From assembly GCA_964187785.1 (NCBI GenBank), contig OZ076419.1, positions 10,788,001 to 10,852,000 on the forward strand: a stretch of DNA of 64,000 nt, written 5' to 3'. A program made the position numbers and the translations under genes. The notes under the pieces were generated by a model. The model made no database searches and had not been told where the DNA came from. It saw only the letters and a program-made list of their open reading frames with translations. This DNA comes from Amphiscolops sp. MND2022. Lineage: Eukaryota. Positions 6,874-56,302 of this stretch are shown piece after piece; position 1 is the stretch's first letter, and each line of letters begins with the position of its first letter.

Positions 6874-8607
6874 TATTATTTTCCGCCCCACAAATTTATT
6901 TGTGAATGGGGGAGGAAAATCATAACATGTGTTGCGTTTTTCTACAAATTTTGTCAAATCCACTTTTTACTCCATTTTATATTTATTACTGCGTTTTATT
7001 AAGGAGGAGGCAGAGGTTCGAAAACAGAGGTTCGTCCCATTTGTCCCAGCACGCTATATCTGAAGTTTTGACGCTATATCCGAAGTTAATTGTGTTTTAC
7101 TACGGAGGAAGCGGAGGTTCAAAAATATAGCGCTGTATCAGAATTTTAACGTTATATCCGAAATAAATAGGGTTTTACCAAGAAGGAGGTAAATTTTCGA
7201 TTAAGTGTCTTTTGTAAGCCAATTGAAGGCGAAAAATATTCAGGTGCATAGCGGGCGTCTTGTTTATTTATGCATAGAAATATCCAAAGTATATACATAA
7301 ATAAAAATACTGAAACAGTTAAGCGTGTAAAAAGGACAGACAAAGTTTATACATCTCGTCGCCGAGTCTCTGCTCTGAAATCTTGGAAGAGATTTATAAG
7401 TGCAGAGAAGTTGAAAGTTGAGATGCGTCGCTATTTTCAAGGTTGTCAATCAGTGTTGACCGATTAAGAATTCCAAATGGCAAATATAATATTTCACGGG
7501 TGACTGTAATTAATGGGCCAACTTCTCTTGCTTATTGGTAACAAACTTGGTTTTGTCGCGCAGGGTCCTTTTGATGGAAAGGCAAAAAAGAGAAAACAGA
7601 AATGTAATGAGGGTGTGTGATATGAATTCATTCGATGCGGTAGTTTTTCAGCAAAAACGGCCTTCAAAAATTCAGGCAATCATTTCCAGAATCTAGACAT
7701 GGACGCAAAACGAAAATGCGAGTATGTGGGCTAAAATTGAAGTTGTAGAGTCAAATGTTGAAAGAATTGAAAGTGCAAGCTTTACAAAAGCTTCAAATAT
7801 TGCACAGTAAACTAAAAAATGCATTGCTTTTCCCGCAATGCACGTTTGTAACATTATCTACGTCTTCCAGAGGAGCCAACTCATCGCAATCGATTACCAT
7901 TGTCGGAGCCCAAATTCTCTTGGGCGCAACAGACAAATATCCACAACTTTGAAGGACTGTCTGCGCGTAACAGAAAACACGGACAAATGTTCTGACACTA
8001 GCAAATAATATCCTCAGAGAAGTCGTGACAAATTCAAAGTACTGAAACGACGCCACTTCAATGAATGAGGAAGCGCTAATTTGACCACTGGCTGATTTGC
8101 ATTCGGAACCAGTTGTTCAACTGTTGAAATGAGCGTTGTAGTAGTCGCTCTGAGTAAACCTACAATTTGCGGTTGTGGAACGTTAACCAATACTCCGGAT
8201 TGAAGATTACACTGGTAACGGAACAAATTATGGGAATCAGTAGCCTTGTCTGTTAACAGCGAACACTTCCTCCGTAAGAGGGAAGTTTTTGTCCAGAAGC
8301 AGCGGAATGAAGTTGAGCAAACGGAACAGTATACAATACAGTATCATTAGGAAGTACAGTAGTGCCGCTGGCTGTTTATCGGTCAGTCACAATTTGGCGT
8401 GCTTGTGCTAGAGTCAATGAGGTTTTAAGATAACCAGGCATCACAGACAACTGAAATTCGAAAGGTCAACACTAATACAGGAGGTGAACATAAGGTATAC
8501 ACTCCTTAAATGGAGTGGAGATAAAGTGGAGTTTTGGCCGAATTAGTTTAAAAAATGCATCACAGATTATGATTTTCCTCCCCCATTTATGTAGGGGAAA
8601 AATAATA
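6874..8607. mobile_element. Inverted-repeat-bounded segment with decayed, unassigned coding-like content
   Basis: AATGGGGGAGGAAAATCATAA (6905-6925) is the exact reverse complement of 8567-8587, with imperfect extension to ~50 bp. Each arm is itself hairpin-like. The interior has long stop-poor frames. No TSD seen. Confidence 0.4.
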
Positions 8608-8610
8608 GTA

Positions 8611-8687
8611 GGTCACTGTCAGTTACTTGTCAGTTTTTGAGTAAATGTTTTCTGTTTCTCTTCTTTTCTAATTACAGCCCCGCTACA
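8611..8687 (-). repeat. Gypsy 3' LTR remnant (~77 bp)
   Basis: Similar to 17250-17327; starts TGTAGC on the minus strand directly after the polypurine tract; homology is lost below ~8611. Confidence 0.7.
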
Positions 8688-9766
8688 TTCTTCCTTCTGT
8701 ATACTTTGCGAGCTTTCTGTAGTAGATACTGTAAACTGAAAAATGGTTGTGCTTCTAGATTTTATCAGACTATGCATTCAATTCTCATCGCTCGAAATCA
8801 CGATATTTTCTCTTTCTTGGAGACTTTCGACACCACATATCATCACTGGGTTGCCGTAGTATTCTGGGGCGTTCCCGTTTCTTTTGGGTTGTTCACTCGC
8901 TGAACTTCCCTGTTCTGTGTCACTTTCTGGCTCTGTTTTAGTTTTCCCCCAGTTAATAGTTGCTTGAATTGGTTGTTTGTTTTTGATTTGTCGCTTTTTC
9001 ACTTCGTGTTCATCTGATTCCAGCAGTTCTCCCCAGTTTGCCAATCTGTTGATTTCCTTTGGTATCCTCTGCTCCTTTTTCTTTGAATTCTGAACTTCTT
9101 CGTTTTTCTTTGGTTGTGCGCTGTTTGTTGGTTTGTCTCTGGTGTTGTGTTCTGATTGGCTGTTGTTGAGCCAATACCTTTTGTCCTTGCAATATCTCTT
9201 TTGCTGTTTTTCTGCGCCGCCTTGCCAGTTTCTTGCATTGTCACTGTATGTGACTTTTCTGTTATTCTCCCTTTCTTTCGCTTGTATGTGCTTTCTCGCT
9301 TTGATCCAAGTGCACGCTCCCTCACTTTGATTTCAGAATTTTGATCTCTCGGGAAATTGCTTATTTCGAGTTCGAAGTTGCTGTCGATTTGTGAAACATT
9401 GTAGTTGTTTGTAGTTGGTTCTGTAGTCAATATATCTTTTACAGTAGTTAGTTTTCTCCCCAGGTGTAGCTCTGCTGGAGAATTTGTGTTACTTTTCGGA
9501 GCGTTTCGTAGCGCATATGATATTTCGGACAATCCCTCTTTGTGCTTATCTGATACCACCCTTTTGTTAGTTCTCAGCCTATCATTTACCGTTTTTATTT
9601 GTCTTTCGACCTTGCCCTGACCTCGGTTGGACATTTAATATGTTGTATAAAATATTTTTGACAAAATTGGGTGAATTTATCTTTAGCACTGTTCCGGGTC
9701 AGTACGAATTTTCTAGGGATACCGTCATCTGCTATGTATCTTTCTGAAAATTCCACCACTTTATTT

Positions 9767-12700
9767 GTAGTGGGGGCTCTCATGAATTTCGCGTCCGGCC
9801 AGCCTGTTTTGCGATTTTTTGATACAACTAGGTTTTTCTTTGGTTTACGTGCTATCTTGAAAACCCTGCAAAGTCTATGCCAATTTCTTCATTGACTGGT
9901 TCCGGCACTGGTATGTTACGGGTTTATTTTTGTTTTACCAATGGCTTTAGCGGCTTACCTGCATTCTGGCATTCTTGGCATGTCTTTGTAAGTAATGTAT
10001 TTTCTCCGTGTATTCGAGCCACCAAATGTCAATTTTTTCCCTTAGCATTTGATCTCTATCTGGGTGTCCCCAGTGTAGTGATTTTCAATTAGCGTTTGTA
10101 ATATTTTTGGTATTAGTCGGTCGTCCATATAGAGTAGGTCATTTTCATCACTTGAATCTTTTTTTCCAAGGGCTGTCTAATGCTCTGATTTTTGCTTTTG
10201 ATAAATTTTTTACGATTGCAATCGAATTTTGTAAGTTTTCGTCATCTCGGTATTTTGCGAATATCATGTTTTCTCCGATTTTGTTAGCGAGTTCTAATTT
10301 CGGAACTAGTTTCTTTGAAGTTTTATTACCTGTTAATAGGTTAGTTGAATTGCTGTCCCATTTTGACTAGGCAGTTTGTTTGCGTCCGTTCACGTGAATT
10401 GAATGCTTGTACGCTTTTGCTTCGTTGGTCGTCACGTCTCAATTTCTTTCATTGTCAGCCTGATTGGTCCGTTGAATTCTTCCGCTAAAATGCTATTTAC
10501 GTTTTTTACATGGTTCTCATTGAACCAGTTTTTCCACTGTTCTGTTGCTTTCACTCTTTCTCCTACTAGTTGTAAAGGATGTCTCGACAAGTATGCAATA
10601 CCATTTGTCCTTGCGGGGGCGTGAGTAAGTCTGCTCGAGTAGGTCTTGTTTTTATTTCCCATTAGTACAGTGACCAGTGCTTTATGATCGGACACCACTT
10701 GGAATTTTATTCTACAGGGGTAGTTTTTGAAACGTTTTACGGCTCAATTTACCGCGAGTAGTTCCAATTCATTTATTGAATATTTATCTTCGAGTGGCGT
10801 TAGAAATCTAGATTCGAAATGGATTGGTCGCCAACCAATTTCGTCCTGTTGCTGTAAAAGTGCTCCTAGACCTGCTTTTCTGGCATCACAAATTAAGCGT
10901 ATTTTACCACTTTTCTTGAAATGTCCGACTTCCGCTACTTTTTGGACTTGTATATTTCTTTGAACGCCTTGTCATGACTTTCATCTCAACTCCAAGGTTT
11001 ATCCTTTTTTTAGTAACGTCCTTAGTTCAAAACATAATAGGGCGAGGTATGGTATGAACCTGTTCTTTTGAATAACCGCCACCAAATATGACCGCAGTTT
11101 TTAAATTTTGGTTATAGTTTATCAGTTATCGCCTGTATCTTGGAATATGTTGGACTAATTCCTGTTTGGGATGATTTGTACCCAAGCCATTCGATTTCGC
11201 TTTGCGCAAATTTACATTTTTCCTGTTTTAGTCTAATGTTCGCTTTATTTAATTTTACAATTACTTGTTTTTCAACGCTGTAATGGTTGTCCTTCGTTCG
11301 TTTTATTACCGTGAGTATGTCTTTTAAAAACACGTACGAATTTGGGAGGTTGGATAGTTCTGTATCCATTGCCTTTTGAAATTCTGTGGGCATTACGGTC
11401 AATCCGTAAAATCCCTTTATAAATCGATACGTCCCTGTTGCCTTCCCTCCAATTATCTGGAAGTTAATGTTTTGCAGTTTCTTCATTGGTACTTGGCCAT
11501 ATGCGTATCACGTATCTATGGAAGTGTACCAAGCTTTTCCCTCATTTTGCTTGTCTAATTGTTCGGCAAGCTCATCGACTAGATGCTCTAAATTTGGCAT
11601 CTGATATTTATCTTTGACGAGGTCAATATTTAGTGCGCGTGCCTCGAGTGTTACACGTTCTATATACCCTTCTTTTAATAATCGCTCTATTTCTTCTTGA
11701 ACTGCTTCTTGCAGTTGTAAAGGTTTCCGTCTTTCTGATAGGTTTAAATTCAATTTTTACCTCGTGGCCAATTGATTGTCCTTGTCTAGTAAACAGCTCA
11801 TTAAATTGTTCTTTCAATTTAATTTGTTCATTTGTATCGTTTTGAATGTCGCTTTTACTTTCTTTCACCACTTGGTTTATCTGGTTGCTTAGATTTCGCG
11901 TTAATTTCGTAACTAGTTCGAAAACCTTCTTTCTGATTGGGTGATACAATTTTGTAATTGAACGCATTCAGCCAGTCTCGTCCAATCAGTGACTTTGCGC
12001 CTTTCTCTGCAATCAAAATCCTGACTTTGTGAAATTTGCTTTGCCTACTTCCAGATGACAAAAGAAGTATCTCAATAAATTCAACTTCCTTTTGTTGAAA
12101 TCCACATACTCCTCATCTTTCGGCAATTCACGAATAAATATATCTCTGCGTTTCGTTATTTCCTTGATGTCGTCGATCTCAAAAATAGTTACCGTTGAGC
12201 TCGAGTCCACCATCGCCTTGAACTGAATTCCATTTATTTTGCCTTTCATCGTGAAATGTCCATTCTCATCGCCTTCAATAGTTAGTACTATATTGTCTTC
12301 GTCAACCACCGATCCATCTCCATTACTGCTCTCTCTCTCTCTCCATTCGCCATTTCTTTGTATTCTCTGCGGTGGTTTTGCTACTTTACGGTTCCTGCCA
12401 AAGTTACCTGCTCCTTTTGTCTGGCAACATTTTGCAAAGTGTCCCTTTTGCCATATTTTATGCACGTCACGCCATTTGCTTTGCAGTCTTTCAAGTGTTG
12501 TGAGGTAAATATCCCTTCACATCGGAAACAATTCTTGTTAGGGCCCCACTTTTTTTGTACTCTGAATAATATTATTTACTTTAGTGGCTTCGGTTTTAAT
12601 GTTCGGCTTCTCAAGTTTTCAGAATGACTGCTGTTGAATTGTTCCTTCTTCGTACTCAATTGCTAAATGTATTGTTTCATTCACTGTGATTTTCGGCTCT

Positions 12701-13534
12701 GTGCATGGTTTCTCGTGGACTTCTTTGTTTGCCATGTTCACAATGAACACGTCTTTCACAAGACTGTTATTTGGCCAAAATTGCATTTCGCTGCCAATTT
12801 GTTTCGCTCATTCCAGAACTGGCGTAAAGAGTTTACCTCTTCTTGCTTTCGTGACAAGAACTCGAATCTATCCAGAGTTTCATTTTTGGATTTTTCAAAG
12901 CAATCTTTACAATTCTTCAAAAGGTCCGGAAGGGTCACCGTCGCAATGTTAGTTGCAGGAAATTTATCTGCTATCGTCTTGCTGCTGGTCATCCTAACGC
13001 CAGGTACAATACGCTTATTGCTTTTTAGTTGCGGGTATTTCATCGAGGTCGCCCGTGAGGCTTTCTTTTTTTCCAGTCGTTTTTCTCAATTCCGATATGG
13101 ATATATTGTTCTTAGCCAATAATGCCACCTGAAAGAGGTCAATCCACTTTTTCCATTCCAAGGTAGGTGTCTATGATGCATCTGCCCAGTAGCTAAGTAA
13201 TCCCGCAATTGCTTGAGGACCCCCGAAGGTTAAGGTTCTGATGGCCGCACCGCCATGTTATAGGATGAGGTTTTTCTTTTTAAGAAGTCTGAGATATTCT
13301 ATCTGTTTAGAATGAAGAAAGAGCAAGACAAAAATCTATTCGCTAGAGACCATATGATGAAATGGATCACCTCAAGTCGAAATGGTTTACAATGTTGCTG
13401 GTATTACTTGCGATGATTTATGCAACAACAAACAGTAATAAACAATAATGAACAATGGTAATACTGCGTCGAAATGGTCATTGTGGCTTACTTGTCAGTT
13501 TTCAATTAAATGCTTTCTGTTTTTCTTCTTTTCT
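9767..13534 (-). repeat. Tandem duplication unit 1 (pol part, gag, truncated LTR 13256-13534)
   Basis: Near-identical to 13535-17309 at an offset of 3768-3775 bp; both copies share the same frameshifts. Confidence 0.95.
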
Positions 13535-16500
13535 GTAGTGGGGGCTCTCATGAATTTCGCATCCGGCCAGCCTGTTTTGCGATTTTTTGATACAATTAGG
13601 TTTTTCTTTGGTTTACGTGCTATCTTGAAAACCCTGCAAAGTCTATGCCAATTTCTTCATTGACTGGTTCCGGCACTGGTATGTTACGGGTTTATTTTTG
13701 TTTTAACAATGGCTTTATCGGCTTACCTGCATTCTGGCATTCTTGGCATGTCTTTGTAAGTAATGTATTTTCTCTATGTATTCGAGCCACCAAATGTCAA
13801 TTTTTTCCCTTAGCATTTGATCTCTATCTGGGTGTCCCCAGTGTAGTGATTTTTAATTAGCGTTTGTAATATTTTTGGTATTAGTCGGTCGTCCATATAG
13901 AGTAGGTCATTTTCATCACTTGAATCTTTTTTTCCAAGGGCTGTCTAATGCTCTGATTTTTGCTTTTGATAAATTTTTTACGATTGCAATCGAATTTTGT
14001 AAGTTTTCGTCATCTCGGTATTTTGCGAATATCATGTTTTCTCCGATTTTGTTAGCGAGTTCTGAACTAGTTTCGGAACTAGTTTCTTTGAAGTTTTATT
14101 ACCTGTAAATAGGTTAGTTGAATTGCTGTCCCATTTTGACTAGGCAGTTTGTTTGCGTCCGTTCACGTGAATTGAATGCTTGTACGCTTTTGCTTCGTTG
14201 GTCGTCACGTCTCAATTTCTTCCATTGTCAGCCTGATTGGTCCGTTGAATTCTTCCGCTAAAATGCTATTTACTTTTTTTACATGGTTCACATTGAACCA
14301 GTTTTTCCACTGTTCTGTTGCTTTCACTTTTTCTCCTACTAGTTGTAAAGGATGTCTCGACAAGTATGCAATACCATTTGTCCTTGCGGGGGCGTGAGTT
14401 AGTCTGCTCGAGTAGGTCTTGTTTTTATTTCCCATTAGTACAGTGACCAGTGCTTTATGATCGGACACCACTTGGAATTTTATTCTACAGGGGTAGTTTT
14501 TGAAACGTTTTACGGCTCAATTTACCGCGAGTAGTTCCAATTCATTTATTGAATATTTATCTTCAAGTGGCGTTAGAAATCTAGATTCGAAATGGATTGG
14601 TCGCCAACCAATTTCGTCCTGTTGCTGTAAAAGTGCTCCTAGACCTGCTTTTCTGGCATCACAAATTAAGCGTATTTTACCACTTTTCTTGAAATGTCCG
14701 ACTTCCGCTACTTTTTGGACTTGTATATTTCTTTGAACGCCTTGTCATGACTTTCATCTCAACTCCAAAGTTTATCCTTTTTTAGTAACGTCCTTAGTTC
14801 AAAACATAATAGGGCGAGGTATGGTATGAACCTGTTTTTTTGAATAACCGCCCCCAAATATGACCGCAGTTTTTAAATTTTGGTTATAGTTTATCAGTTA
14901 TCGCCTGTATCTTGGAATATATTGGACTAATTCCTGTTTGGGATGATTTGTACCCAAGCCATTCGATTTCGCTTTGCGCAAATTTACATTTTTCCTGTTT
15001 TAGTCTAATGTTCGCTTTATTTAATTTTACAATTACTTGTTTTTCAACGCTGTAATGGTTGTCCTTCGTTCGTTTTATTACCGTGAGTATGTCTTTTAAA
15101 AACACGTACGAATTTGGGAGGTTGGATAGTTCTGTATCCATTGCCTTTTGAAATTCTGTGGGCATTACGGTCAATCCGTAAAATCCCTTTATAAATCGAT
15201 ACGTCCCTGTTGCCTTCCCTCCAATTATCTGGAAGTTAATGTTTTGCAGTTTCTTCATTGGTACTTGGCCATATGCGTATCACGTATCTATGGAAGTGTA
15301 CCAAGCTTTTCCCTCATTTTGCTTGTCTAATTGTTCGGCAAGCTCATCGACTAGATGCTCTAAATTTGGCATCTGATATTTATCTTTGACGAGGTCAATA
15401 TTTAGTGCGCGTGCCTCGAGTGTTACACGTTCTATATACCCTTCTTTTAATAATCGCTCTATTTCTTCTTGAACTGCTTCTTGCAGTTGTAAAGGTTTCC
15501 GTCTTTCTGATAGGTTTAAATTCAATTTTTACCTCGTGGCCAATTGATTGTCCTTGTCTAGTAAACAGCTCATTAAATTGTTCTTTCAATTTAATTTGTT
15601 CATTTGTATCGTTCTGAATGTCGCTTTTACTTTCTTTCACCACTTGGTTTATCTGGTTGCTTGGATTTCGCGGTAATTTCGTAACTAGTTCGAAAACCTT
15701 CTTTCGGATTGGGTGATACAATTTTGTAATTGAACGCATTCAGCCAGCCTCGTCCAATCAGTGACTTCGCGCCTTTCTCTGCAATCAAAATCCTGACATT
15801 GTGAAATTTGCTTTGCCTACTTCCAGATGACAAAAGAAGTATCTCAATAAATTCAACTTCCTTATGTTGAAATCCACATACTCCTCATCTTTCGGCAATT
15901 CACGAATAAATATATCTCTTTGCGTTTCGTTATTTCCTTGATGTCGTCGATCTCAAAAATAGTTACCGTTGAGCCCGAGTCCACCATCGCCTTGAACTGA
16001 ATTCCATTTCTTTTGCCTTTCATCGTGAAAAGTCCATTCTCATCGCCTTCAATAGTTAGTACTATATTGTCTTCGTCAACCACCGATCCATCTCCATTAC
16101 TGCTCTCTCTCTCTCTCCATTCGTCATTTCTTTGTATTCTCTGCGGTGGTTTTGCTACTTTACGGTTCCTGGCAAAGTTACCTGCTCCTTTTGTCTGGCA
16201 ACATTTTGCGAAGTGTCCCTTTTGCCACATTTTATGCACGTCACGCCATTTGCTTTGCAGTCTTTCAAGTGTTGTGGGGTAAATATCCCTTCACATCGGA
16301 AACAATTCTTGTTAGGGCCCCACCTTTTTTGTACTCTGAATAATATTATTTACTTTAGTAGCTTCCGTTTTAGTGTTCCGCTTCTCAAGTTTTTCAGAAT
16401 GACTGCTGTCGAATTGTTCCTTCTTCGTACGCAATTGCTAAATGTATTGTTTCATTCACTGTCGTTTTCGGCTCTGTGCATAGTTTCTCGTGGACTTCTT

Positions 16501-17309
16501 TGTTTGCAATGTTCACAATGAACACGTCTTTCACAAGACTGTTATTTGGCCAAAATTGCATTTCGCTGCCAATTTGTTTCGCTCATTCCAGAACTGGCGT
16601 AAAGAGTTTACCTCTTCTTGCTTTCGTAACAAGAACTCGAATCTATCCAGAGTTTCATTTTTGGATTTTTCAAAGCAATCTTTACAATTCTTCAAAAGGT
16701 CCGGAAGGGTCACCGTCGCAATGTTAGTTGCAGGAAATTTATCTGCTATCGTCTTGCTGCTGATCATCCTAACGCCAGGTACAATACACTTATTGCTTTT
16801 TAGTTGCGGGTATTTCATCGAGGTCGCCCGTGAGGCTTTCTTTTTTTCCAGTCGTTTTTCTCAATTCCGATATGGATATATTGTTCTTAGCCAATAATGC
16901 CACCTGAAAGAGGTCAATCCACTTTTTCCATTCCAAGGTAGGTGTCTATGATGCATCTGCCCAGTAGCTAAGTAATCCCGCAATTGCTTGAGGACCCCCG
17001 AAGGTTAAGGTTCTGAAGGCCGCACCGCCATGTTATAGGATGAGGTTTTTCTTTTTAGGAAGTCTGAGATGTTCTATCTGTTTAGAATGAAGAAAGAGCA
17101 AGACAAAAATCTATTCGCTAGAGACCATATGATGAAATGGATCACCTCAAGTCGAAATGGTTTACAATGTTGCTGGTATTACTTGCGATGATTTATGCAA
17201 CAACAAACAGTAATAAACAATAATGAACAATGGTAATACTGCGTCGAAATGGTCATTGTCGCTTACTTGTCAGTTTTCAATTAAATGCTTTCTGTTTCTC
17301 TTCTTTTCT
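13535..17309 (-). repeat. Tandem duplication unit 2
   Basis: See unit 1; paired ORFs include 9877/13645, 10727/14500, 11112/14884 and 13448/17223. Confidence 0.95.
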
Positions 17310-17327
17310 AATTACAGCCCAGCTACA
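17031..17327 (-). repeat. Gypsy 5' LTR (297 bp) with adjacent primer-binding-site-like sequence
   Basis: Minus strand TGTAGC...TATAACA, followed immediately by TGGCGGTGCGG (17030-17020); second copy at 13256-13534. Confidence 0.85.
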
Positions 17328-17789
17328 TGGATCTTCATCGTTTGCTCTGCTTTGCGTTCATCATCTTCGTCTACATCTTTGGATTGTTGGCTTGTGTCTG
17401 TTCCATGGTTCCACAACATCTACTGCTTGAACTGGATCATGGTTTTTTCAAGTGGAGTTTTTAGGAAGTTTAAGTTGCGATTGGCTCAAAAGTGCAACAT
17501 ACCTCAATTTGTTGATCTTTCAAAATTTGAACGCTTGCCTTGAAATTAACCAAACGGGGAATCACGCTTATCATCGATTCCTCCAAATGAGGCTGATTTA
17601 AGCAAACGTGGAACCACGCTTGTCGTCGATTCCAGCTGAACAATTGAAACCCAATAAGTCCTTGTTGCTTTTGCCGTCTTAGATGTTGAAAATTTAAATA
17701 GCATGAAAATCAACGCACACGCAGAAATACAATCCGGCATTCTTATCATTAACCATTGTGTATTGCGGTCTCATTCACGGCACGAAAAC

Positions 17790-17975
17790 ATTGACACAAA
17801 ATTTCAAACAAGACCAGCGACTGCCCAAGGCAAACGTTGCGGAAGCTTTGTGAAATTTGATCCGTTGTCGCTGTTGTGTTCCGACAGTCATGTTAAGAGC
17901 GCGTTCCGTTCGGCCTAAAGAAAAAGTTTTTGGCGATGTCGGGTAAAGGCTAACTAAACGGTAAACAATCGCCAG
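17790..17975 (-). pseudogene. SLX1-like GIY-YIG endonuclease remnant, C-terminal to the helicase
   Basis: Across frameshifts: IVYRLVSL...TFSLGRTE...LT*LSEHNSDNGSNFTKLPQRLPWAVAGLV. This fits the SLX1-type pattern YxLxS...Y(I)GxT...RLxxHN...G...T...RPW; the conserved Arg position is TGA. Confidence 0.6.
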
Positions 17976-18049
17976 GTAATTTGGTTTTAATATTAAAAGG
18001 TACAAAAGCTATTTTCGAGATGTTGATAGGCTGAACAATGCCACCTAAT

Positions 18050-19375
18050 CGTGCGTCCGTGCGGATGTTATCTAACAGACTGAGAAGACGTTTTTCCCGC
18101 AAATCCCTACTCTCAAAAAGTGATTTTATTGCGTCCAACGTAGCTGTCTTATCTCCGCCGAAAGTGAGGTTCAACTGTTTCACTCGACTCACTATAACGA
18201 AGACATGTGATGTCATCCGAAAGGCATAGCTACTATCAGTTTCGGAAATTAACGTTGCCAGCTTGTCAAACGTATCACCCATGAGTTTGTGTGTTGTCAT
18301 GGCCACATTCTTCATCAGCGGTTTCTGGATCCTTCTAACAGTTCTCGAAGGAGTGCACGAAACCGGTTTGCCTCGAAAGGATCACTGAGCGCCAATTTAG
18401 GTACTTTTCGTGTTCCAACATCGCCTGAGAGATGTCAACGTCACCACTAGTGTCAGGGATGTGGACTGTTACCGAGTCAGCGGAAGGAACCTCGTGGATT
18501 ACACCAACCTGTCCTTGAGACAACTGCTCAGCTTCGAGATTCAGACTGACCCTGACCTAAGCTTTTGGGCTCACAATGAGGCCTTTGGGCTAGTTCACTT
18601 TGTCGCTCAGATGACTACTTACTTTACGAGAGTCTGTCTGATTCCACACAGAGCTCTTTGACATCAGCCTCAAAGATTTTGAGCGCAATTCCGGACTCGC
18701 GTACTCACTGAATGTGGCTTTCGAATTCTTTCTGCTCAGCTTTCCGCTTTCCGAAATCACGCATGACATGGATCTTGCACTGCAAGCCGAACTGCCTTTG
18801 AGGGATTCCAGAATCACCAGAATTTCGGCGACCCCAGGAGCATCAATTGGACGTCTCTACATGTGCCGAAGAACAGTTTGAGCTGCTTCATCTGTCATGA
18901 AAACGAAATGCCCCAGAAGAACAAGCAAAATTTGTCAACAGTACTGGTGAGAGGAAGATGCCATTGCCCTCGACGGATGGCAGTTGCATTTAATCACCGC
19001 TAGCAATCACCAGAACGGCACTGAAAGGCAGGGTAGACTGCTTCAACTGGAGTACAATGATCATTGAAGACCACTGTTCGGCGCTGATTGAACTTACTTC
19101 TTCCACGAACAATTCTTCCAGGGCCAGGAGGAACATCTTTTTCTCATTCCTGTGATCGAGTTTAGTCAACGCTTGCTCGGCCATCTTGATCGGGGAGCCG
19201 GAAGATGCAAGCAGGAGAACCTTTGAATGTGCTCACCGCTAAAATGTGTTAATCTCAAAGCTGAACATATTACCAGACAAAACTGACCTCTAGAAAGCGC
19301 ATAATTTAACGCCATTGTTGAAACGTACGTGTACATGTACCTGGAGGACCTAAAATTAATTGATCTCGCAAACCT
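18050..19375 (-). pseudogene. PIF1/RecD-like SF1 helicase remnant
   Basis: Motifs in the correct order across frameshifts: I QLILGPPGT(CT) ~19335-19370; Ia/Ib SGEHIQRF; II LFVEEVSSIS; III PFSAVLVIASGD*MQLPSV; V QKPLMKNVAMTTHKLMGDT; VI VFVIVSRV. Confidence 0.85.
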
Positions 19376-19974
19376 GTGACTTGCAAACTCTCAATGATTA
19401 GATTAAGAGTTTTTTAAATTTGGGACTGCTTCTGCAAAGTCTGAGCAAACTGGAAAACATTTGCAATGAGGTCCGCAGACCACTTCGAAGGTGTTTCTTT
19501 TGTCACTAGATCGAAATTCGCAGAAGATGAAAAATTTGGTATATTTTGTGTGTCAACGACTTAATGTTAACTTGTGACTGACGAAGCATCTTTTTGGCCT
19601 TGTCTTCTAGTGCTTCAGTGACAGTGTCCATGCTCGTGGTCGGTAAGCCTTCATTGTAGATGTTGTTGTCCATTAACATTCCTTTGAAAGCAGATTTCGC
19701 AACGAGAAGATTGGAATCAAACGACCTCGTACCACCTTGCAAGTACCTTTTCCAAGACGTTTTTTTTTTCAAAATCTCATTAACATCATTTTCATCGTTT
19801 CTTGTTTCTGTCAGGGTCAGTTCCTCCTTCTGCATACGCATCTTTTGTACTTGCAATCGTCGTTGAGGCCATGATACCTTGCGTTTTATTTTTTGCAGCT
19901 TCTCGAGCAATAATTTTCCTAACACCTAGTTTTTTGTTTCGAAATTTTTGAACCTGAATATCAAAACATGATGT

Positions 19975-22116
19975 GCGTTGTCTGGGTTGATGAAGACTTC
20001 TGCGTGTTCTTCTTTTCCAGCAGCGTAAGAAGTTAAATACCTGGGCGCTATAGACTTGCAAGCTTTCAAAGCGTCCAAACTTGACCTACAAATACCCCAC
20101 AAAGCAACATTAAGCGGCGATATGTGTTTTTCTTTTTAGGCCGCATCAGACATGACTTAACCTGCAAACATTCATTGAAACCAGCCTCGGTTCAGATAAA
20201 TCTATTTCCTGTAACGCTGCCAAGATTTCCTGTGAATGCGGTTGGTGGAATTCCTTGTACCATGGATTGTGATTCTGGGGGTACGGAGGGACACTACATT
20301 TCCTTTCGCCGTTCAACCTAACATTTTTCAAGCAATGCCCTTTGTCACAATCATGGGTCTGAATACGTATAGTCTTGAAACAACTTAACAGCATGCTCTT
20401 CATTCTCGACAGTACCAAAATTGACATGAAAAAGTTGTTCAAACTCATAAACTAGCAGCTGCACTTTGAAATTCATCTCTACCCCAAACCTTTTAAATTT
20501 CGCCCGAAATATGTTCATCCCAAAACCGCAAATAATCTATCAAAAGCTCAATTGTGCGGGTCCAGCATCTAACAATTATTACCATGTAAGATTGCAGCTC
20601 TTCTTTCAATTCTTCTGTCGTAGCGGCTTCATAAAGTTCAAGAATTCACCAATTGTGATTTAAATTTTGGAGAGTGGCATTGTAGATCGTTGATAGGACA
20701 CAATAAAGATTATCGAATACTATGTGACCTCATATCTGTCACGCCTTAACGTTTGAACCGGAAGAGCTTGAATAAGTAACCTCAAAGTCACGTCATCATG
20801 AAGAGACGTTCTATTGAGCACTATATTCGCACAGGTCACTGCCGGCCGAACGATTACTGAACTGAAGAATATTTTATTTAAATATATAAAATATTTAAAC
20901 TTATCATTTCTGCTGCCTGAAAAGCGTTAGAGTCCAGATAAAGTGTCATTGAAGGTTGGTTGTTGGACAGTTTGAACTTCAAAGACCATTTGGATCAAAA
21001 AGAGTCGAACTTTATATACTGGATCATTTAAATTTGGTCCAAAATTAATCGTGCAAGGTAATTTTTGTATTTCAAACACTATACTTGTATTCAGACAACT
21101 TTCAGCATAGATTTCAAGAAGAAGTAGTGAGCTCGTGAACATGTGAACCATCGGTTTGTACCACCCTTTAATCTCGAATCCTCCATTCAGGTTAACTGAG
21201 TCGCAGATTCGAAGAACAACCTCATCTAACTCAAACGGGTCGAAGTCTATCGCATTAGTCGAGATTTCTTTTTTTTGTGCTCTTACGAAGATGTCAGTAG
21301 TGGGGCGTTCGATGTTTTTTTTGGTTTTTGTCCGAGTCTTCGATAACTTGGAGCTCGTCGGAAACAAAGGCAACTGTTAATGCTGTGGCGGACAGTACTC
21401 GCACTGACGTTGAAATGTGCAAAGCTAATTCCGTTAGACTTTCTATAGATTCAAAGCAACCTGCAGGACACCTAATAGTAGGAAAACTCTACTTCGTTAG
21501 AGCCTCAACCAAGTTTTTTTCTGTTCGGTTATCAGTGTCCAAAAATAATCTTTCTCAGAGGTAAGATTCCTAAAAAGAGCTTCTTTTGCAGACCTAAATA
21601 TTGATGGATGAACAGTGTTCATGTGTATTTTATACGTGTCTTTGATTTTATGCGGAAGTATTTTTGAAGTTTTTCTGCAGTAGAGCTAAACCTATGTGGT
21701 TGAAAGAGTAAAGTATACATGAGACAAGGCCACACGTTAGGCCAATCCTTGTGACGAGTGGTATTGTATGTATGTAAAATATTGTTGACAGTAACTGTTT
21801 CACCAGTCGTCTCAGCCATATGTTTACCAAACATAGTCGGATGAAGTGAGGCACGGCGTGAAGTCAGGTCCTTAATTGTTTGTGGACGTTTTGCTACACT
21901 TCCAGCACATCTCGCATCTGGAACCCTATGGGTGCATCTGGCTGGGGTATTGGGGACATTGACATCATTGGTGACATCTTGTTTGGCAACATGATGTTGT
22001 TGTACTCGTTCATTCTACTGACATCTTGAACAGACTTCGTCAACTCCAATGAACTTGTTGTGAACCTCATATCTCCTCACAATATCGTTTCTACCTCGTC
22101 CTCTACCACGTGGCAT
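19975..22116 (-). pseudogene. Helitron-like Rep and N-terminal region remnant
   Basis: HISPLNVALW...RYLTSYAAGKEE (~20130-20005) resembles the Rep motif carrying the catalytic Tyr residues; IQTHDCDKGHCLK...RKCSVPPYP resembles the Helitron Rep QxHxC..C..CR..P block; upstream RCPAGC and WPNVWPCL; candidate ATG at 22116. The HUH motif itself was not recognised. Confidence 0.55.
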
Positions 22117-22535
22117 ATTGCAATCAATTTGAATCCAAGCCTATCTTAAAAAACGCTGTTGTGTTAGACGTTACCAGAGAAAACCACCATTTCATGACAA
22201 AAATTATGGTGAAGTGGAAATATCATTAAACACCATTCGTTGCTTTTTAATTGAGACACGACCTATTTTCGTTCAGAGCACCTAATCATCAGCCACGCAT
22301 GGACTATGTTTTTACTTTATTGTGATCAATAATCCTTATCACCAACCACGCTTACCGTCGATTAGTGATGAATCTACAACTCTATTCTAGTCAGTTATCC
22401 TAATCAATAACCACGCTTTCCGTCGATTAGTGATTTTAAATAAAAATTAACAAAACCTGGTATAAAACATCACTTGAAATGTAACCAAATCAAACACTTT
22501 TTCCATTGACCAATGAATTGAAAAACCATGATAGA

Positions 22536-23061
22536 ACAAGCCGGGAACGGCCCAAGTCGGCGCCATATCTAAGGCTCAAAAATAACAAAAGGACTTCAAA
22601 GTGTCAAGTATTCTCTTCTACAGTACCCGTTTGAGGAAAGTTGAAAAAAAATCCGATTTTTTTTGAATTTTTTAAAATTTTTTTGGTCCGTAAGTCGCAT
22701 GGTGCCGAAACATGTAAAATGGGGCCCTTTGGAAGTTTTTTAACATCCATTCTTTTGCAAAATAGACAAAAAAATGAAGGGTGGACCCTTTGGAGATATT
22801 TGCGAAAAAAGTCTCACAAAGCCGAAAAAAATTTGCACAAAAAAATTTTGGTCATGACGGGACTCGAACCCATGTCATTCTGCTTGTCAGACCTCGAAAA
22901 AGCCGTAGTGGCCAAGTGGCAGTGAAGTAGTGTGACACAGTTTAGTGTTGGTGCCGGTTTAGTGCCAACTTATAAAATTTATAAAATCTGTCAGTTCGTT
23001 GGTCTTAAAAAAAGTCACTACTATAGTCTGCGTTTTCCTTCGAAAAGCGCCGACTAAAAAA
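22536..23061 (-). mobile_element. HINE/DINE-1-like non-autonomous Helentron, family A, copy 1
   Basis: subTIRs AGTCGGCGC (22555-22563) and GCGCCGACT (23047-23055); partial inverted repeat beside one subTIR; short hairpin GCCG-GGAA-CGGC outside the other; T-run end; tRNA-like segment at ~22850-22900. Confidence 0.7.
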
Positions 23062-23345
23062 CCAGTCATTCAATATGTTATTCAAATCTTTCTTTCGGAC
23101 CCATTCATTTTTACCAAAAAATTATATGGTTCAAAAACAAAAAATTATATACTCTAAATGTCCAATTGAAATAATAGCTGGAAATGAAATAATCAAATTG
23201 TTCATGAAATCACAGTGAAATAAAACGAAGTGACAAATATAAGGCTATCAATTGATACAATTGTTCACCAAAAATGTCATATCTTTCTTCTGTTACAAAT
23301 GAAGAATCCAAAATCAAATGAAAAACAGACACAAAATCTCAAATG

Positions 23346-23986
23346 TCATTCCAAAGATAGAGAATGAAAACATTCTCTCAATTCATTCGTTGCTGGGAAT
23401 GCGAAATATTTTTGTATGATTGTCGTCAGTTGAGAAAGTCCTCTAAGAATAAAAACATTCATGTCATTCGTTGTTGAGGAAGCGAAATATTTTTTGTTTA
23501 TGATTGTCGTCAGTTGAGAAAGTCCTTTATCATTCAAATGAACCTCATCTTCGGCCAAAATATTTTCAGTGGACATATTTGAACCGATTCCTACGAACCA
23601 TAAATAATAACTGAAATTCAATTCATGAATGGCTCCACATGAACTATTTTGTTTCGGGATTCCGAGCACAAATACTCTAATTCCCATATCGTAGAGATAA
23701 TAGGCCATCTTGTCTATCTCATTCTTTGTATCGTCAGGGCTGATTGCAACTCTAAGTCGACTGGTTTATACCGTTTGACATAGACTATAAAGACATAGAA
23801 GTCGCTGTCTAGATTGTTAGACCTCAAATAACAAAACAATGTCTTCCACCGTCCACGGGCGATAATGACAACGTCGCATTCTTCTATATTGAATGTCTTA
23901 ACCAAAGGGTCTCCAATTAGAAGAGTTCTAGTACCAGCGAAGAAGCGCTCATATACTTTGAAGTTGAAACCATTCATCCTCATCAA
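23346..23986 (-). pseudogene. SGNH/GDSL hydrolase-like remnant
   Basis: TLLIGDPLVK (block I GDS-like) and ILAEDEVHLNDKGLSQL (block V DxxH-like) in the correct order; interrupted by stops; C-terminal ~85-bp duplication. Confidence 0.5.
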
Positions 23987-25149
23987 TTAAAAAGCCATTA
24001 TCGAGAGATTTTTAAAAAGTGTTTTCAGAATGATGGTTTTACCTCTCATTAGACATGATATCATTGAATGAAGAAAAGTACGATCGAATTCCAAATTTAT
24101 AGCATGAATATAAAACACAAAACACAACATTGAACCTTTTTAAATTCTGAATGGAAAATTTTTTAAAGTATATTGACACTGTCGTAATGTAACAGTCACC
24201 ACACTCTCATCTGGAATCCTCCACACCTGCAATAAAGACGATGGATAAACTTCACAAGGGAAAGTAAACTAAAAATGAACAATAAAAAACCTATTTTTGA
24301 AACTTACAAATCTCGAGGCTTGAGGATGCCGAACGTGGTGCCGAAAAGCGTGTCAGACCGACTGGGGTGCCTGCTCAGCCCAGAAGGTTAAAAAATCAGG
24401 CAATCATTTCCAGAATCAAGGAAGCCATGCCAATAGCATGTTTCTTCGTGTTAATCTGTGAACTTTCTTCGAAAGCCATGATCTATAACAAACTTGAATG
24501 CAAAACATCTTTTTCATCCAAGGTGAAATGGAATAAATGGCTTGAGCGGGCTGCTGTTTATTCAATAATGGGACGTTTAACGGATCAATTAAAAGTTCGA
24601 TCAATTGTATACATAATACTGAGCAACTTAGCACTGTGAATATAGAGTGAAAAATTCCATTTAAACATTGAAAAATCGAAATAATTTTGACAATTGAAAC
24701 CCTATTCAATAGTTACATTGTTGTTTTCAGCCAAATTATGAACTTGCTAAACTGGGATCATGAAAATGCTACTCTCAGACAACTTGATGGAGTTCCATTG
24801 TTTTTGTGTTGGTTTTGAGGCTTCCATCAAACACGCTAATGTCTTTGGAAGTCTTCTCTGTTGACTTGGTTTCATAAAGCGACCGTTTCAGTCATTTTAC
24901 GTTTTCTATAGAAGGGTATCTCATGGCTTGATAACACTTCATCGTGCTAATTCAACTATTCGTACTGTCAAAAATTCCTGTTCAAAGAATTTTTCGTTGT
25001 TTACGAAAAGATATATCCACTACACGTCTCTCTACAGTCTCGCTACGCGAAATCCCGGTTTCAATACGCGCGGTCTTTTTAGTTGTTAAAAAAGTTGTAT
25101 CCATGCTCGACAGTTTTTTCTTTTCCTATGATGTTCACTGCACTGTAAC

Positions 25150-28970: not shown

Positions 28971-29103
28971 TCATGTAAAGGTTTGATGCAAAAAATTGGT
29001 GAAAATACTAGAAAAAATGGTTATTTTGTCAGTGAAATGATTTCACTGACAAAATAACCACTTTTTCTAGTATTTTCAATTTTTGCATCAAACCTTTACA
29101 TGA
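28971..29103. repeat. Near-perfect 133-bp palindrome (foldback element)
   Basis: Arms of ~67 and ~63 bp around a 3-nt loop (TGA, 29038-29040). Confidence 0.9.
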
Positions 29104-34419: not shown

Positions 34420-36197
34420 ATATGGTGCTTTTTTTCAAACGACATATCCGGCAGTGCCCCATGTTTATGTCCTGCTGCAATAATCTCTGTCTCCGGGATG
34501 CGGAGGCTGTCCCACAAATTCACAATTGTACAATCTCATTTCTGCTTTCGTCCGTTCGGCTAGTAGTATCTCCATCGATGTCGGATGTCTTCAAAAATTT
34601 ACATGGCTTCCACAGAACTGATCGCCTTTCGCTAAGCCGTTGTGAGAGTTTAGCTATCATATTGTTCTTGAGCTGTTATTCCGCTAATCCCTCAAGCTCA
34701 AGAACCAGCAATTGGCAGCTCTCGTGGGCAATATAGAGACTGCAATCACGCTCACTCAATTTGTGAACTACTGCAGCGACACTGTCTAGGACGGATTTAA
34801 GGACTTTCAATTTCATGACATCCGGTTCCGTAACGTCCTCTTGAGTTTTCCCAAGTCAATTAGTGCCTTGGATATCTGCCACCGAAATTTTAAAAATGAC
34901 GCTATCATGGATAACATAGAATCCCACTGGGATTCTATGTTATCCATGATAGCGTCATTTTTAAAATTTCATGGCATCCAGTCTTGGAATCAATTTGGAA
35001 CGTCGATTCCGAAATTCTATCGGCTTGTAAAACAGCCAACACTTTGTCGGTGTTAAGCGCCGATTCTCGGAACAGCTTCACAATTTCTCTCAGTTTGGCT
35101 ACGGAGGCAGATATGTTCTCACTCAGCTCTGTGTAGCCGTCGTCCTCTTGATTATCGTCATCACTGTCACACTCTTGTTCGTCACAGTTAACGACTGCAA
35201 TTGGTGACCGGTACAATTGGTCGCATACAGCCAAATGAACCCCATGTGCCACGCAAAATTGCGTCCAATCCTCCTTCTGCAGTTGACGGGCAACCGCCCA
35301 ATTAGCGCTAGCGCCGTCACAAATCAACGCCACAACATCCTTCGCCATATTGACACGATAATCATTGGGTCGCCTTACAAGTTTTTCTGCAAGGACACTC
35401 GCTGGCGCAGAACCATAAATCTTTGACAGTCCTAATGGTTGTAGCTCGCCACTTTTGCCGTGTAGATTGACACACATGTACTTCCGATTACGAACCGACG
35501 TCCACTCGTCAAAGGTGACAGAAACTTTTTCGCCGTCGCTGAGCTTTGATTGTATAGTTTCTTTGAGATCATGTTGCACGCTTGCTCGAAATGATTGAAT
35601 GTACCGTCGCACAGCATGACGGTCAGTAGGAATCTTCTTAAAACCACGTGCGACAAAGCCTTGGCGAATGTCGTGGGATGAAGCAATCGTATGGAGCGAA
35701 AAGCCATCTTTAGCAGCCATGCGAAAGAGGACCTGGAAACACAATATCATCTGCTTTTTTGACGTAGAAATCTTACACTTTGGTGTACAGTGCACTTACA
35801 AGAGGAAGAGTATCTCGCTCAAACGATTCAGAAAATGTAGCTAGGCGTTTCTTTCTCTTCGGTGCGCTGGTTGACGGTGACGCCGACGGACCGCTCTCCC
35901 TCGATGCTGTTAATGCCTCAAATGCTGCACCGTGCTTTGCCTGGAGATGCGACTTTAACCCTTTTGTGCTACCTCCAAGCGTTTTCACCTGCTTCGCACA
36001 TTGTGAACACTTTGCGGTCTCTCTGTCCAATCGCTCGTAAGGCGCCCAGTATACAGATACACTCATATCTGAGATATACTCAAGTTTTAACAAATTTTAC
36101 AAGTTGTCAACAATCCCGGGATCCCGCGGTGTAAATCCCGGGATCTCAAAATTGCTCGGGATCCCGGGAGTTCGTGATTCCGGGATTCTCAACACTA
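34420..36197 (-). mobile_element. hAT DNA transposon remnant inside the BEL integrase
   Basis: BED finger (W..Y....AKCSQC...GSTKGLKSHLQAKH), VSVTFDEWTS, CDGASAN, CVAHGVHL. One terminus TAGTGTTGAGAATCCCGG with CCCGGGAT subterminal repeats; the other end is missing. Confidence 0.88.
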
Positions 36198-38633: not shown

Positions 38634-41600
38634 GTGAGATTCATCTTCTGCGTTGATTGGTTTCATGCTAGTTTCAGCTTCTTGGGTGGGTTTAAGCACC
38701 ATATTCGGGACATTGAGGACGAAATTTGTGAGTGAGAAGCCAACCAAGTTCAACAATTTGACAAGATCTTGCTATTTTTTCATTACCTCCTCAACTGTCG
38801 GACAAGATTTCAAATAGTCATCCATGTAGAAATTGTTCAACACACTGAACGTTGCTTCTGGAAACTCACTCTCGTTATCGGTAGCTGTTCTACGGAGCGC
38901 ATAGTTTGCGCAAGTTGGTGAATCTTTAGACCCGAAAATGCGGAGGACATATTGATACACAGCAACGTCGGTCTGTCTTTGGTGATCACGCAAACTGGTA
39001 AAAACATGCTCTCAATTTCAGCGAAAACGGCCTGACAGTATTGGCGGAATTTCACGAGGACATGGATTGAAGTCTGTACTAAATCAAGTGCGGTCAAAAG
39101 AGCGTTGTTGAGTGGGCAACTGTGGAATTTTGCGGCACCATTAAGTAGTCGACGTACTTTTCCCGGTTTATGAGGATGTAAAACTGGGTGATGCGGTAAA
39201 TACCACTCGCGTTCGTCGTCAATCTTGAAACTTTCTTATTTTGGAACTTTGACGTCGTAACCTTTGTCAAAATCGTCTTTGATAGTCTGATCGTAGCTAC
39301 CTTTGAGTTCAGGTGTTCTCTCAAATTGGCGCTCAAGTAACTTTAAGTGGATCAAAGCGGAGAAACGGTTATTGGGAAGGCTACTTTCGTCATTCGCCCA
39401 TAACATACCGACCGGATATACTCGTAGGCGCTTCCACTTCTAGCTACAGCTTTAAAGCACGTTGAAAAAAGTCCAGGTGTCGAAGGCAGTGGTCCACTTA
39501 AAACCCAAATCAACTGTGTTCGGACAGCGATTGGAGCATTTTTTCGGTCGGCTTCAAAATATTCCAGAGGGCCGATTAAGTGGATTACGTCTTGACTCAA
39601 GATCATTTCGACGTCCCAAGAGCTATGTTATTTCAGGACAATGGGCTCACAGTGAGGACAATGCGTCTTCGACTTGTCGACATCGATTACATCGTTCCCA
39701 ACATGAAGAGTTTTTCTCACGTACGGCTTGACCTCAAAAGTGGAGCAAGAGCCACCCGAATGAACAGGCGTCAACTTGAGCTCAACAATTCAGGTGTCAA
39801 TCACATTTCGGGTGTGAGTTGATTCCATGGACAGTCAGTTTAGTTGGTGATCCTTTCAGTTTCAATTTGGATGCGATGTTTTGTGAACCACAGGAGTGAC
39901 TACAAGCAGAATCACATAAAGCCAAAACCTTGTGGTAAAGAGTAGCTGTAAGCACTTGAACTTCAACGATCTGTATTAGCCCTTTCACGTCAGTCACAGA
40001 GCAAATTCCAGTCCTTTCTTTACTTTTGGTTTCGGTGATGTTTAGGCTCTGCGATCCAGTTACTTTGTTCCTTGTCGGTTTCGGTGTCGTTTCCGCAGCA
40101 AAAGTCCGTTCTGCTCCGTGTATGAGAGTGTTGCGGGAACTAAAGCATTCATTCTTGCTGCATTTCCGTGGTGCAGTACCTTGTCGGAAGGAGTGATTCC
40201 CTTTCAAGCAAGAGAAACAAAGTTTGCTATCGGCAACAACCTTCGCTCGTTCGGTAAGGAAAACGTGACAGCGCCATAATGGATGGGTCTTTCGGCGTAC
40301 GACACAGTTGGTTTGTGTTCGGTTTGTAATGGTCTTTTGAGCCGTTGACGGTGCACTCGATGTAGCTGATGCAAAATTCTTGGTACCAGTTTTCACCTTT
40401 GTTACTGTGGTAGGGCTCTCCTCGGATGGTTTTTCCAGAAAACACTTTCAGCCGCTCGTGGGCCTCCCCCTTGTCTTTCAACCAGACGTTGAAATCTAAG
40501 AGAGTTGCGCGACTCCAGTTGTTTTTTCACCGTATTTATGGACCAAGCTTTCTTCATGTTGGGAGGAAGTTTCTGCACTGCTTGGTCCAGACGAGCAGCT
40601 CTCTCGGCAAGTCATACTCATACTTCAACGATCGGAAAACTCCGACTTAGGCTGAAATTGTTGCTGAGTATGCAAAAAACGTTGTCACTGTTGTGCATCT
40701 TCAAGGGCGGAAAACCGGAGAGTTTATCCAATTGAGCTGAAACGACAGCATGAGGCTGTCCAAACTTTCGTTCCAGTGGTTTCAAGGCGTCTTGATACAT
40801 TGTTCCGCAGTAGGCAAACTCAGCTATTGCTGTTTTTGTTTTTCCCGTAACGAGTGTTTTTAAGTAAGTCAACTTAACATAGTCCGAGAGTGGCGCGGCG
40901 TCAATGGCACTTTTGAACTGGCTGATTCACTCGTGTCACTGCAGTGGATCTCTGTTGTACTGGGTCAGTTTCAACTCTGGAAGTTTGAATTTGTGCCAAG
41001 TCGTTGACACTGACGGCCGGAATCATTTGTGGGGGAATTGATGTTGTTGGGTGCGGAAATGGTTGATAGCTCAAGCTAGCCGTGGTCAAAGTTGGTTGTT
41101 GGAAAAGTAGCGCGGTTGTTGGAAGTGTACCCAGTTGTGGGTGACAATCAAAAGTTGTGCCTCCACTTTGAATAGGAACAATGGGAGCGAAACTCACAGT
41201 GGTACTTACAATGGATTCCGTTGTAGCTTTTGTTCCCGTCATTTGTCCACAACTCGGTGGCGAGATGATCAAGTTATATCCAGGGATACTACTTGGAGCC
41301 GGAAACGTCCAAGCGACGTGTTGGATATAAAGTGGCTGGCTGGTATGTGAACCCGCGGCATGCCAGCCGGTATCGTTGCTGCCGGAACGTTCCGTGTATG
41401 AGTCGGAGCTTGTGGTCCTAAGGCATTGGGAGTTTTCGTTATAGGTGGTGGAGGTGGTAAATTATCAAGAAGTAACGGCATGTTTCCCTCACTTAAAGGC
41501 GGTGTACTGTTTGGTCTCATGATTGTTTCACTGGGATCGGTAGTTACTGCTGTAGAATGCTTTTGAGCAGTTGTCAGACTATTCACAACTGAAGCAGGCC

Positions 41601-55719: not shown

Positions 55720-55792
55720 CTGAAACATTTGGATCACTAAACATGTAGGACAATGATAGTCAAGGTATCATTTGGAACAGTGGAATGCTAAC

Positions 55793-56224: not shown

Positions 56225-56302
56225 CTAAACATTTTATGACATTCATGAATGCTCAAGATTTCAACGATCAAGGAAGCAATCAAGCTGGCAATTTTCACTA
56301 AC

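Follow-up and report, generated by a model that had tools for sequence, protein, structure and literature searches.

Hairpin clusters at successive genes of a Helitron-like element in Amphiscolops sp. MND2022: candidate RNA signals in a multigene transposon

Why should a 20-bp motif stand in pairs on both sides of a transposon gene? The question is raised by a 64-kb stretch of the genome of Amphiscolops sp. MND2022 (assembly GCA_964187785.1, contig OZ076419.1, positions 10,788,001 to 10,852,000), called here the window. An initial annotation, made from the letters of this stretch, described four copies of such a motif around a Rep-helicase-nuclease gene. The description is accurate: the copies lie at 17560–17579, 17612–17631, 22344–22363 and 22409–22428, on one strand and spaced by 52 and 65 bp. 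Between the two pairs is a decayed minus-strand gene coding for a Rep, a helicase and a GIY-YIG nuclease (RepHel), which runs from 22116 to about 17693. The motif is the repeated apex of hairpins found at successive genes of a multigene Helitron-like element; it is not an element end, and probably not a nick site. On the basis of sequence comparisons, we lean towards reading the hairpin clusters as candidate protein-bound RNA signals for 3'-end choice or stability in a multigene transcript with a shared leader.

The motif is the apex of a hairpin

The number of motif copies expected by chance in the window is 0.02, against the four observed, and no fifth copy is present in its 64 kb at up to three mismatches. 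In the 1.07-Gb source genome, the 19-mer form of the motif has 89 exact matches (one for the reversed control) and the 18-mer core has 285 (one for the control), 100 of which are listed with positions. The motif is confined to copies of the element.

The 20-mer is a genuine repeat, but not a complete unit, being the apex of a longer hairpin on the minus, or gene-sense, strand. Every copy is enclosed by an inverted repeat, the sequence of which differs between classes. In the class found in the window (H1), the gene-sense strand folds into an outer stem, the pairs A-U, U-G and C-G, a bulged G, three further pairs and a loop of 5 nt ending in AG. The single bulged base of the fold is G or U, and the upper stem is short. 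There are two main types of H1 stem, the CACT-type and the GGA-type.

The outer stem covaries. In 35 chosen variants, 89 per cent of cells are paired, compared with 33–42 per cent in slid controls. There are 59 double-sided stem changes versus 23 in shuffles, none of 500 shuffles reaching the observed level, although these shuffles take no account of relatedness between copies. The gene-sense strand gives the better RNA fold in 146 of 147 variants and the better DNA fold in 139. Among 65 distinct stems, which are not independent copies, G-U occurs 29 times and A-C 10 times (p = 0.003).

The core recurs in a second class, H2, where the closing pair may be A-U, U-A, C-G or G-C and one G-C pair is replaced by U-G; H2 has 80 exact matches and none in the control. 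The general core pattern is found 306 times in 1.48 Mb, and never when reversed. One young subfamily carries a different hairpin repeat of 76 nt after RepHel. No match to H1 was found in the viral contigs scanned, and an H1 covariance model run on 23 sources (among them four short-flanked metagenome relatives, divergent lineages and HLE1/HLE2 loci) recovered the four sites of the window only.

More structured repeats, with conserved tips and varying stems, lie between RepHel and the next gene at loci L064–L065 and L049. Besides the 76-nt unit, they include a pair of hairpins ahead of AATAAA and, preceding gene B, a three-way junction. The junction was considered as a hammerhead; this reading was rejected, the catalytic core not being seen by eye.

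Hairpin clusters follow the genes of the element

From its leader, the element usually continues with gene B and a cluster, RepHel and a cluster, in some cases gene C, then gene A with a cluster, and the end; copies differ in gene order. When intact, RepHel measures about 2370 amino acids, with Pfam matches to Helitron_like_N and PIF1 and a weak match to GIY-YIG (21.2 bits in the query, for a cut-off of 22.6). The intact product of gene B is GDSL/SGNH-like by its Atlas features and has no Pfam match. Gene A is predicted to code probably for an OB-fold single-strand-binding protein; its Atlas features are weak, its model has a pLDDT (predicted local distance difference test) of 42 and a fold search gave no match at E ≤ 0.001. 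Gene C, a 206-amino-acid open reading frame (ORF; L073:7552–8172, minus strand), lies between RepHel and gene A in some subfamilies; it has no Pfam match, and other copies keep only a short remnant of it.

Clusters were counted in 1.28 Mb around all 89 exact 19-mer sites and more, chosen for matches to the motif, the ends or the genes. There are 117 clusters, comprising 249 sites. Almost all of them (107) lie within 1.5 kb after an element gene on the same strand. Seven stand solely before a gene and three near none, two of these three being just before the 3' end of an element and the third inside an element; one cluster has an opposite-strand gene nearby. None of the 117 falls inside a coding match, and clusters were not seen in the shared 5' leader. 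The median distance is 83 nt after RepHel and about 410–440 nt after genes A and B, and the spacings within clusters include 64 of 52 bp and 30 of 65 bp.

The clusters keep to their genes. The CACT-type cluster stays with gene B even where B lies 3' of RepHel; in a lineage 69 per cent identical, H2 takes the place of H1 after RepHel and after A; and a lineage 30 per cent identical has its own hairpin pairs after each of three genes. An acceptor-like site is found 5–79 nt upstream of the ATG in 10 of 11 genes, compared with 22 per cent of control positions within 60 nt. In all four intact copies, the first AATAAA after RepHel is downstream of the cluster. Tandem units of gene B, hairpin cluster and RepHel N-terminus, differing in length, were also seen at five loci (L045/L116, L071/L093, L118, L090 and L208).

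The option of a signal repeated at successive genes of a larger element, raised in the initial annotation, is sustained by the SGNH, RepHel and OB-like genes and by the confinement of the motif to copies of the element. The same option included a promoter motif; this part is not favoured, as the clusters follow genes, and their covarying stems with a G-U bias point to a single-stranded fold.

The element copy in the window

The copy in the window is dead and spans 7693–24388 on the minus strand, between 27-bp target-site duplications. Its parts, all on the minus strand, are as follows, in gene-sense order.

24390–24416: left 27-bp target-site duplication, with the target half CTTG before it; 96% identity with its counterpart at 7666–7692
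24293–24388: 5'-truncated start of the element, matching what in other copies is non-coding DNA ahead of the SGNH gene
23481–24022: decayed SGNH/GDSL hydrolase-like gene (gene B), from tblastn
22402–22435: CACT-type H1 hairpin, belonging to the cluster that follows gene B; motif at 22409–22428
22337–22370: H1 hairpin with CACT-type stem; motif at 22344–22363
17693–22116: dead RepHel-GIY-YIG gene with stops, frameshifts and large deletions
20664–21389: 3' fragment of gene A, displaced into the RepHel gene
17605–17638: GGA-type H1 hairpin, 63 nt downstream of the last match to RepHel; motif at 17612–17631
17553–17586: H1 hairpin with GGA-type stem and two core changes; motif at 17560–17579
8611–17327: long terminal repeat (LTR) retrotransposon with a 3.77-kb internal tandem duplication, a later insertion and not part of the element
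7856–8447: decayed 5' part of gene A, from tblastn; likely OB-fold single-strand-binding protein (fold weak, of low confidence)
7693–7720: conserved 3' end of the element, ending in CTAG
7666–7692: right 27-bp target-site duplication, starting with AT

The deletions in RepHel remove about amino acids 238–1057, 1125–1152 (including the HUH motif) and 1364–1627. The retrotransposon that cuts in at 17327, labelled Gypsy in the initial annotation, is identified by an LTR at 17030–17327, its twin at 13255–13534, a remnant at 8611–8687 and an RVT_1 match; the two parts of its tandem duplication (9766–17309) are 98 per cent identical. The stretch 17328–17552 had been described as stop-poor and acidic. 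It has stops in all three minus-strand frames; in other copies, matching sequence forms the spacer behind the hairpins.

Ends, arrays and target site

Copies cease to align at a conserved 3' end, CTAG (CTGG in one lineage), and full-length copies begin with GTG(C/G). The 20-bp motif had been taken to be neither a terminal inverted repeat nor the canonical Helitron end. The ends are elsewhere; the element itself does end in CTAG, which had not been located. The real ends lie about 950 nt upstream of the first H1, in copies where RepHel comes first, and about 200–400 nt downstream of the last H1. The GT...AG ends also recall a spliced intron; this reading was dropped, and the RT of the target follows from the nick model too.

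Young copies are stacked head-to-tail (CTAG|GTG) among thousands of short units of 1.2–2.1 kb that have about 780 bp of leader in common. A palindrome near the 3' end of the short units has 4,239 exact matches; it lies 40–55 nt before the 3' end in short units and divergent lineages, and none is evident in H1-bearing ends. Autonomous lineages that are 30 per cent alike occupy common head-to-tail rows. In a region of about 3 Mb (C1:73.46–76.48 Mb; L047, L050, L061–L062, L066–L069, L095–L097 and L204–L207), the listed element ends all point one way, and every stretch examined shows short units in rows with intact autonomous copies from several lineages. This region may be a satellite or centromere-like domain.

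None of 69 short non-coding units carries H1, H2 or another hairpin class. No hybrid of the two main stem types was found among the 65 distinct stems (8 with a CACT-type and 34 with a GGA-type left arm). Duplication breakpoints are away from H1 in five of the six loci examined; there is one module switch at an H1, and two short copies start 10–20 nt before an H1. When 5' truncations were compared with the positions of H1, the intergenic DNA was seen to diverge everywhere except around H1, which gives false boundaries. A short copy starting at H1 (L086:5283–5635) and a longer copy on another contig (L051) have about 80 bp of 3' flank in common, possibly by 3' transduction or from a common target repeat.

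The insertion target is CT(A/C/T)G|RT. Where no recognized unit follows a 3' end, RT comes next in 41 of 44 cases, and T is in second place in all 44. The 3' flank is duplicated upstream in 9 of 35 distinct lone loci (33 and two, from two separate surveys), the duplications measuring 27 (window), 48, 50, 148, 152, 424, 853, 1159 and 1454 bp, and CT(A/C/T)G stands directly before the upstream duplicate in all nine. Of 300 random 18-mers taken as a control, 64 had a copy upstream, and in one case such a copy followed CTNG; empty siblings of tandem host repeats might also give such a result. Element DNA begins within 65 nt of the end of the duplication in six of the nine. Of the remaining three, the 424-bp case has a junction that is not pinned down, the 853-bp case has its junction at a distance of 946 nt, and at the junction of the 152-bp case, only 85% identical, there is no nucleotide match. 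The duplications accompany lone 5'-truncated copies. Three candidates were left out: C12:45.62 Mb, inside a host satellite; C9:45.47 Mb, with 835 bp between tandem gene-A modules; and C11:7.53 Mb, with a flank of 14 nt.

Possible roles of the hairpins

We infer that the hairpins act in RNA because they hug the 3' ends of genes, stay with the gene upstream of them, accept U-G pairs and do not occur in units that lack genes. According to this proposal, a leader, spliced in cis or in trans, would serve several genes through the acceptor-like sites just before their start codons. The hairpins would tune where transcripts end or read through, or the stability of the RNA, and would be bound by a protein of the element or of the host. 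Several observations weigh against the proposal. The search pattern itself accounts for part of the invariance of the core; the positions of AATAAA after genes A and B are mixed, or the signal is absent; and the divergent autonomous lineages at C1:74.33 Mb and C5:22.68 Mb are without any recognized recurring hairpin class. Furthermore, the mRNA and the displaced plus DNA strand agree in polarity, and the gene-sense strand is also favoured as DNA, so that strand bias cannot separate RNA from single-stranded DNA.

This shared polarity makes a role in single-stranded DNA the main rival, although we judge it unlikely. The hairpins would form on the displaced single plus strand and serve the replication of long elements, by priming the second strand or by loading or pausing RepHel or the OB-fold protein. 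The plus strand indeed folds better as DNA too (139 of 147 variants), it is the strand that Helraiser is described as transposing (PMC5876387), and hairpins are often recognized by HUH enzymes according to PMC10288648. Intergenic DNA is the sole free space of the element, and units of 1.2–2.1 kb might do without internal sites. The absence of hairpins from all 69 short units speaks against a replicative role, as do the position of the clusters close to gene 3' ends, and not in the shared 5' leader, and the exchange of a core G-C pair for U-G, which better suits RNA.

The initial annotation had also proposed iterons or nick sites of a circularizable unit. In a wider form, the motifs would be nick or recombination sites that define such a RepHel unit or shuffle gene cassettes, resembling virus origins or attC sites. 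Rolling-circle origins have a constant apex on variable stems, as H1 does; gene order differs between copies, and the module switch and the two short copies mentioned above begin at or close to H1. Cutting and rejoining between stem types should, however, leave hybrids, and there are none in 65. We conclude that the motif probably does not define a circularizable unit, because the real ends (GTG...CTAG) are elsewhere, hybrid stems are lacking, none of the 69 short units has the motif and breakpoints are away from H1 in five of six loci; of all the readings, that of nick or recombination sites is the least probable. Only slightly more credible are double-stranded promoter or enhancer boxes for the next gene, to which the 52-bp spacing, close to five helical turns (64 spacings of 52 bp and 30 of 65 bp), and the seven clusters solely before a gene would be suited. 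Complementary stems of differing sequence and a G-U bias on one strand are unexpected for a duplex site, and the last gene also has a cluster after it. A self-cleaving or nuclease-blocking RNA structure that cuts a polycistronic transcript into gene-sized pieces is equally improbable. It would fit the invariant core, the tandem copies between genes and the existence of several related structured classes, and Terminons are described with hammerheads among many ORFs (PMC6431247); but a Rfam covariance-model search of 30 kb holding H1 and H2 (L046, L047 and L049) gave no match at E ≤ 1. Moreover, a single bulged hairpin is small for a ribozyme.

A model for transposition

We propose that the HUH domain would nick CTNG|RT both at the 3' end of the element and at the target; either strand is compatible with the sequence as the nicked one. 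If the same short sequence is nicked in both places, existing 3' ends would be good targets, and mixed rows would be built. In full-length events, both ends would be joined cleanly. In one-ended events, the 3' end would be joined, and a second cut at a variable distance, probably made by the fused GIY-YIG nuclease, would produce both the duplication and the truncation.

Some data do not fit this model readily. No duplication was found in 26 of the 35 lone loci, many of them old or interrupted, and two full-length lone copies, without duplication, have the left flanks CTAA and CTGC, off the target consensus. The GIY-YIG domain may not be the cause of the duplications, because Replitron-1 is described as making variable ones without a second nuclease (PMC10288648).

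Other features of the window

Intact-looking ORFs of 391 and 1573 amino acids are present at 47887–53994 (plus strand), with an inverted 73% match at 40.7–41.0 kb (40672–40983). GC-rich, cysteine-rich repeats with a period of 108 bp occupy 55387–58400 and resemble, by eye, a host exon array of the LDL-receptor type. Two near-perfect long palindromes, with arms of 43 and 39 bp and a spacer of 1 nt, lie at 34884–34970 and 29000–29078.

Membership of the lineage

The defining features of the Helitron superfamily are present, namely a two-tyrosine HUH Rep fused to a PIF1-like helicase, with Helitron_like_N and PIF1 above the Pfam cut-off. The HUH and YxxxY motifs align, the last lysine of the usual motif being mostly absent. 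With the Rep region as query, 147 proteins were found at E ≤ 1e-30, and 679 when the threshold was E ≤ 0.001; GIY-YIG was matched at E ≤ 0.001 in 13 of the 20 long relatives scanned. RepHel had no match at E ≤ 1 among PDB sequences. Relatives were found at four loci in one of two metagenome scans, and none in the viral contigs scanned.

In a quick Rep tree, 28 rows of the lineage stand apart from four HLE1-like and five HLE2-like rows with an SH-aLRT (Shimodaira–Hasegawa-like approximate likelihood ratio test) value of 99, the references all being from the source genome and the tool warning that long branches meet. The tree omits P0079 and P0132, a near-duplicate and three HLE1 rows that are almost identical; in the preceding version of the tree, one HLE2-like row grouped with HLE1. 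The Rep is thus outside the HLE1 clade in this tree. The 3' end (CTAG or CTGG) conforms to the CTRR of HLE1. The 5' end is GTG(C/G) instead of TC, and insertion is at CT(A/C/T)G|RT, with duplications of 27–1454 bp in 9 of 35 loci, instead of at A|T without duplication.

As to HLE2, its marker DUF6570 is absent from the 24 proteins of the lineage (one of them short at the N-terminus) and present in all four HLE2 of the source genome. The longest inverted word between the 80-nt ends is 6–7 nt in both copies analysed, which argues against terminal inverted repeats; the target is not T|T; and GIY-YIG takes the place of the C-terminal AP endonuclease of Helentrons. The Replitron combination of one catalytic tyrosine, terminal direct repeats and no helicase is not found. 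The source genome also carries HLE2 with DUF6570, one with OTU and one with weak JAB and AP endonuclease matches, as well as strong canonical Helitron_like_N matches (L210–L214 and L165–L187).

By these sequence features, the lineage appears to be Helitron-like with a CRe-like one-ended insertion, and departs from the tested features of HLE1 and HLE2. No title or abstract opening in the full-text literature searched, a body without subscription papers and Repbase, describes a GIY-YIG RepHel lineage with these ends or hairpins. We tentatively suggest, as a possibility that falls somewhat short of even odds, a third major Helitron-like branch. It would use one nick sequence for its own 3' end and its target, and lineages 30 per cent alike would share arrays with thousands of short parasites. 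The fused GIY-YIG would drive one-ended insertions with kilobase duplications, and virus-like multigene transcription would be punctuated by interchangeable RNA hairpins.

Comparison with known systems

As described for HLE1 and Helraiser (PMC5876387, PMC11417382), the lineage has a HUH Rep and PIF1 in one ORF, a CTAG 3' end, tandem arrays, an accessory gene that is likely to code for a single-strand-binding protein and, in short units, a palindrome ahead of the 3' end. It differs in its 5' GTG instead of TC, a target other than the A|T reported, with the plus-strand mechanism, for Helraiser (PMC5876387), its long duplications, its separate Rep and its internal hairpin clusters after genes. 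With HLE2 and Helentrons, it has in common a large RepHel with an extra C-terminal nuclease; DUF6570, terminal inverted repeats, the T|T target and the AP endonuclease of the published descriptions are absent. HELIANO, which defines HLE1 and HLE2, mentions one GIY-YIG-bearing HLE2 (HelenSM92), as a captured domain, and unclassified clusters (PMC11417382); either might belong to the lineage described here. As the ends and target are outside the rules for HLE1 and HLE2, such elements would be mis-annotated.

Replitron-1 and IS91, as presented in PMC10288648, also insert in one orientation beside a short target, and Replitron-1 makes variable duplications; both are without a helicase, and Replitrons have one catalytic tyrosine and short terminal direct repeats. 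A SGNH hydrolase gene travelling with a Helitron recalls texim of fish Helitrons (PMC4021074). In contrast to texim, the gene is seen here upstream of RepHel in lineages 30 per cent identical (in the most distant, a GDSL-like motif recognized by eye). The hairpins are compact and structured, have natural variants with compensatory changes and match no Rfam family; self-targeting, if true, would explain how transposons build long mixed satellite arrays.

The usual view of Helitron-type elements is that their insertion leaves the target without a duplication. The closest parallel is provided by the CRe-1, CRe-2 and CRe-3 Helitron2 families of Chlamydomonas. The account of Bao and Jurka (2013, PMC3627910) reports intact 3' ends, frequent 5' truncation and variable duplications directly after the target tetranucleotide, with none for full-length insertions, and the window lineage shows the same pattern. 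The CRe families are described as non-autonomous, with Fanzor, asymmetric inverted-repeat ends, a TTTT-like target and duplications mostly of 7–19 bp (up to 443), whereas the present lineage has the target CT(A/C/T)G|RT, which resembles its own 3' end, duplications of up to 1454 bp and a RepHel with a second nuclease fused to it. Craig (PMC10288648; for insertions, see also PMC9977147) reports variable duplications in Replitron-1 and speculates on a second nuclease for the Chlamydomonas Helitrons; the present nuclease-fused lineage shows the signature of these exceptions.

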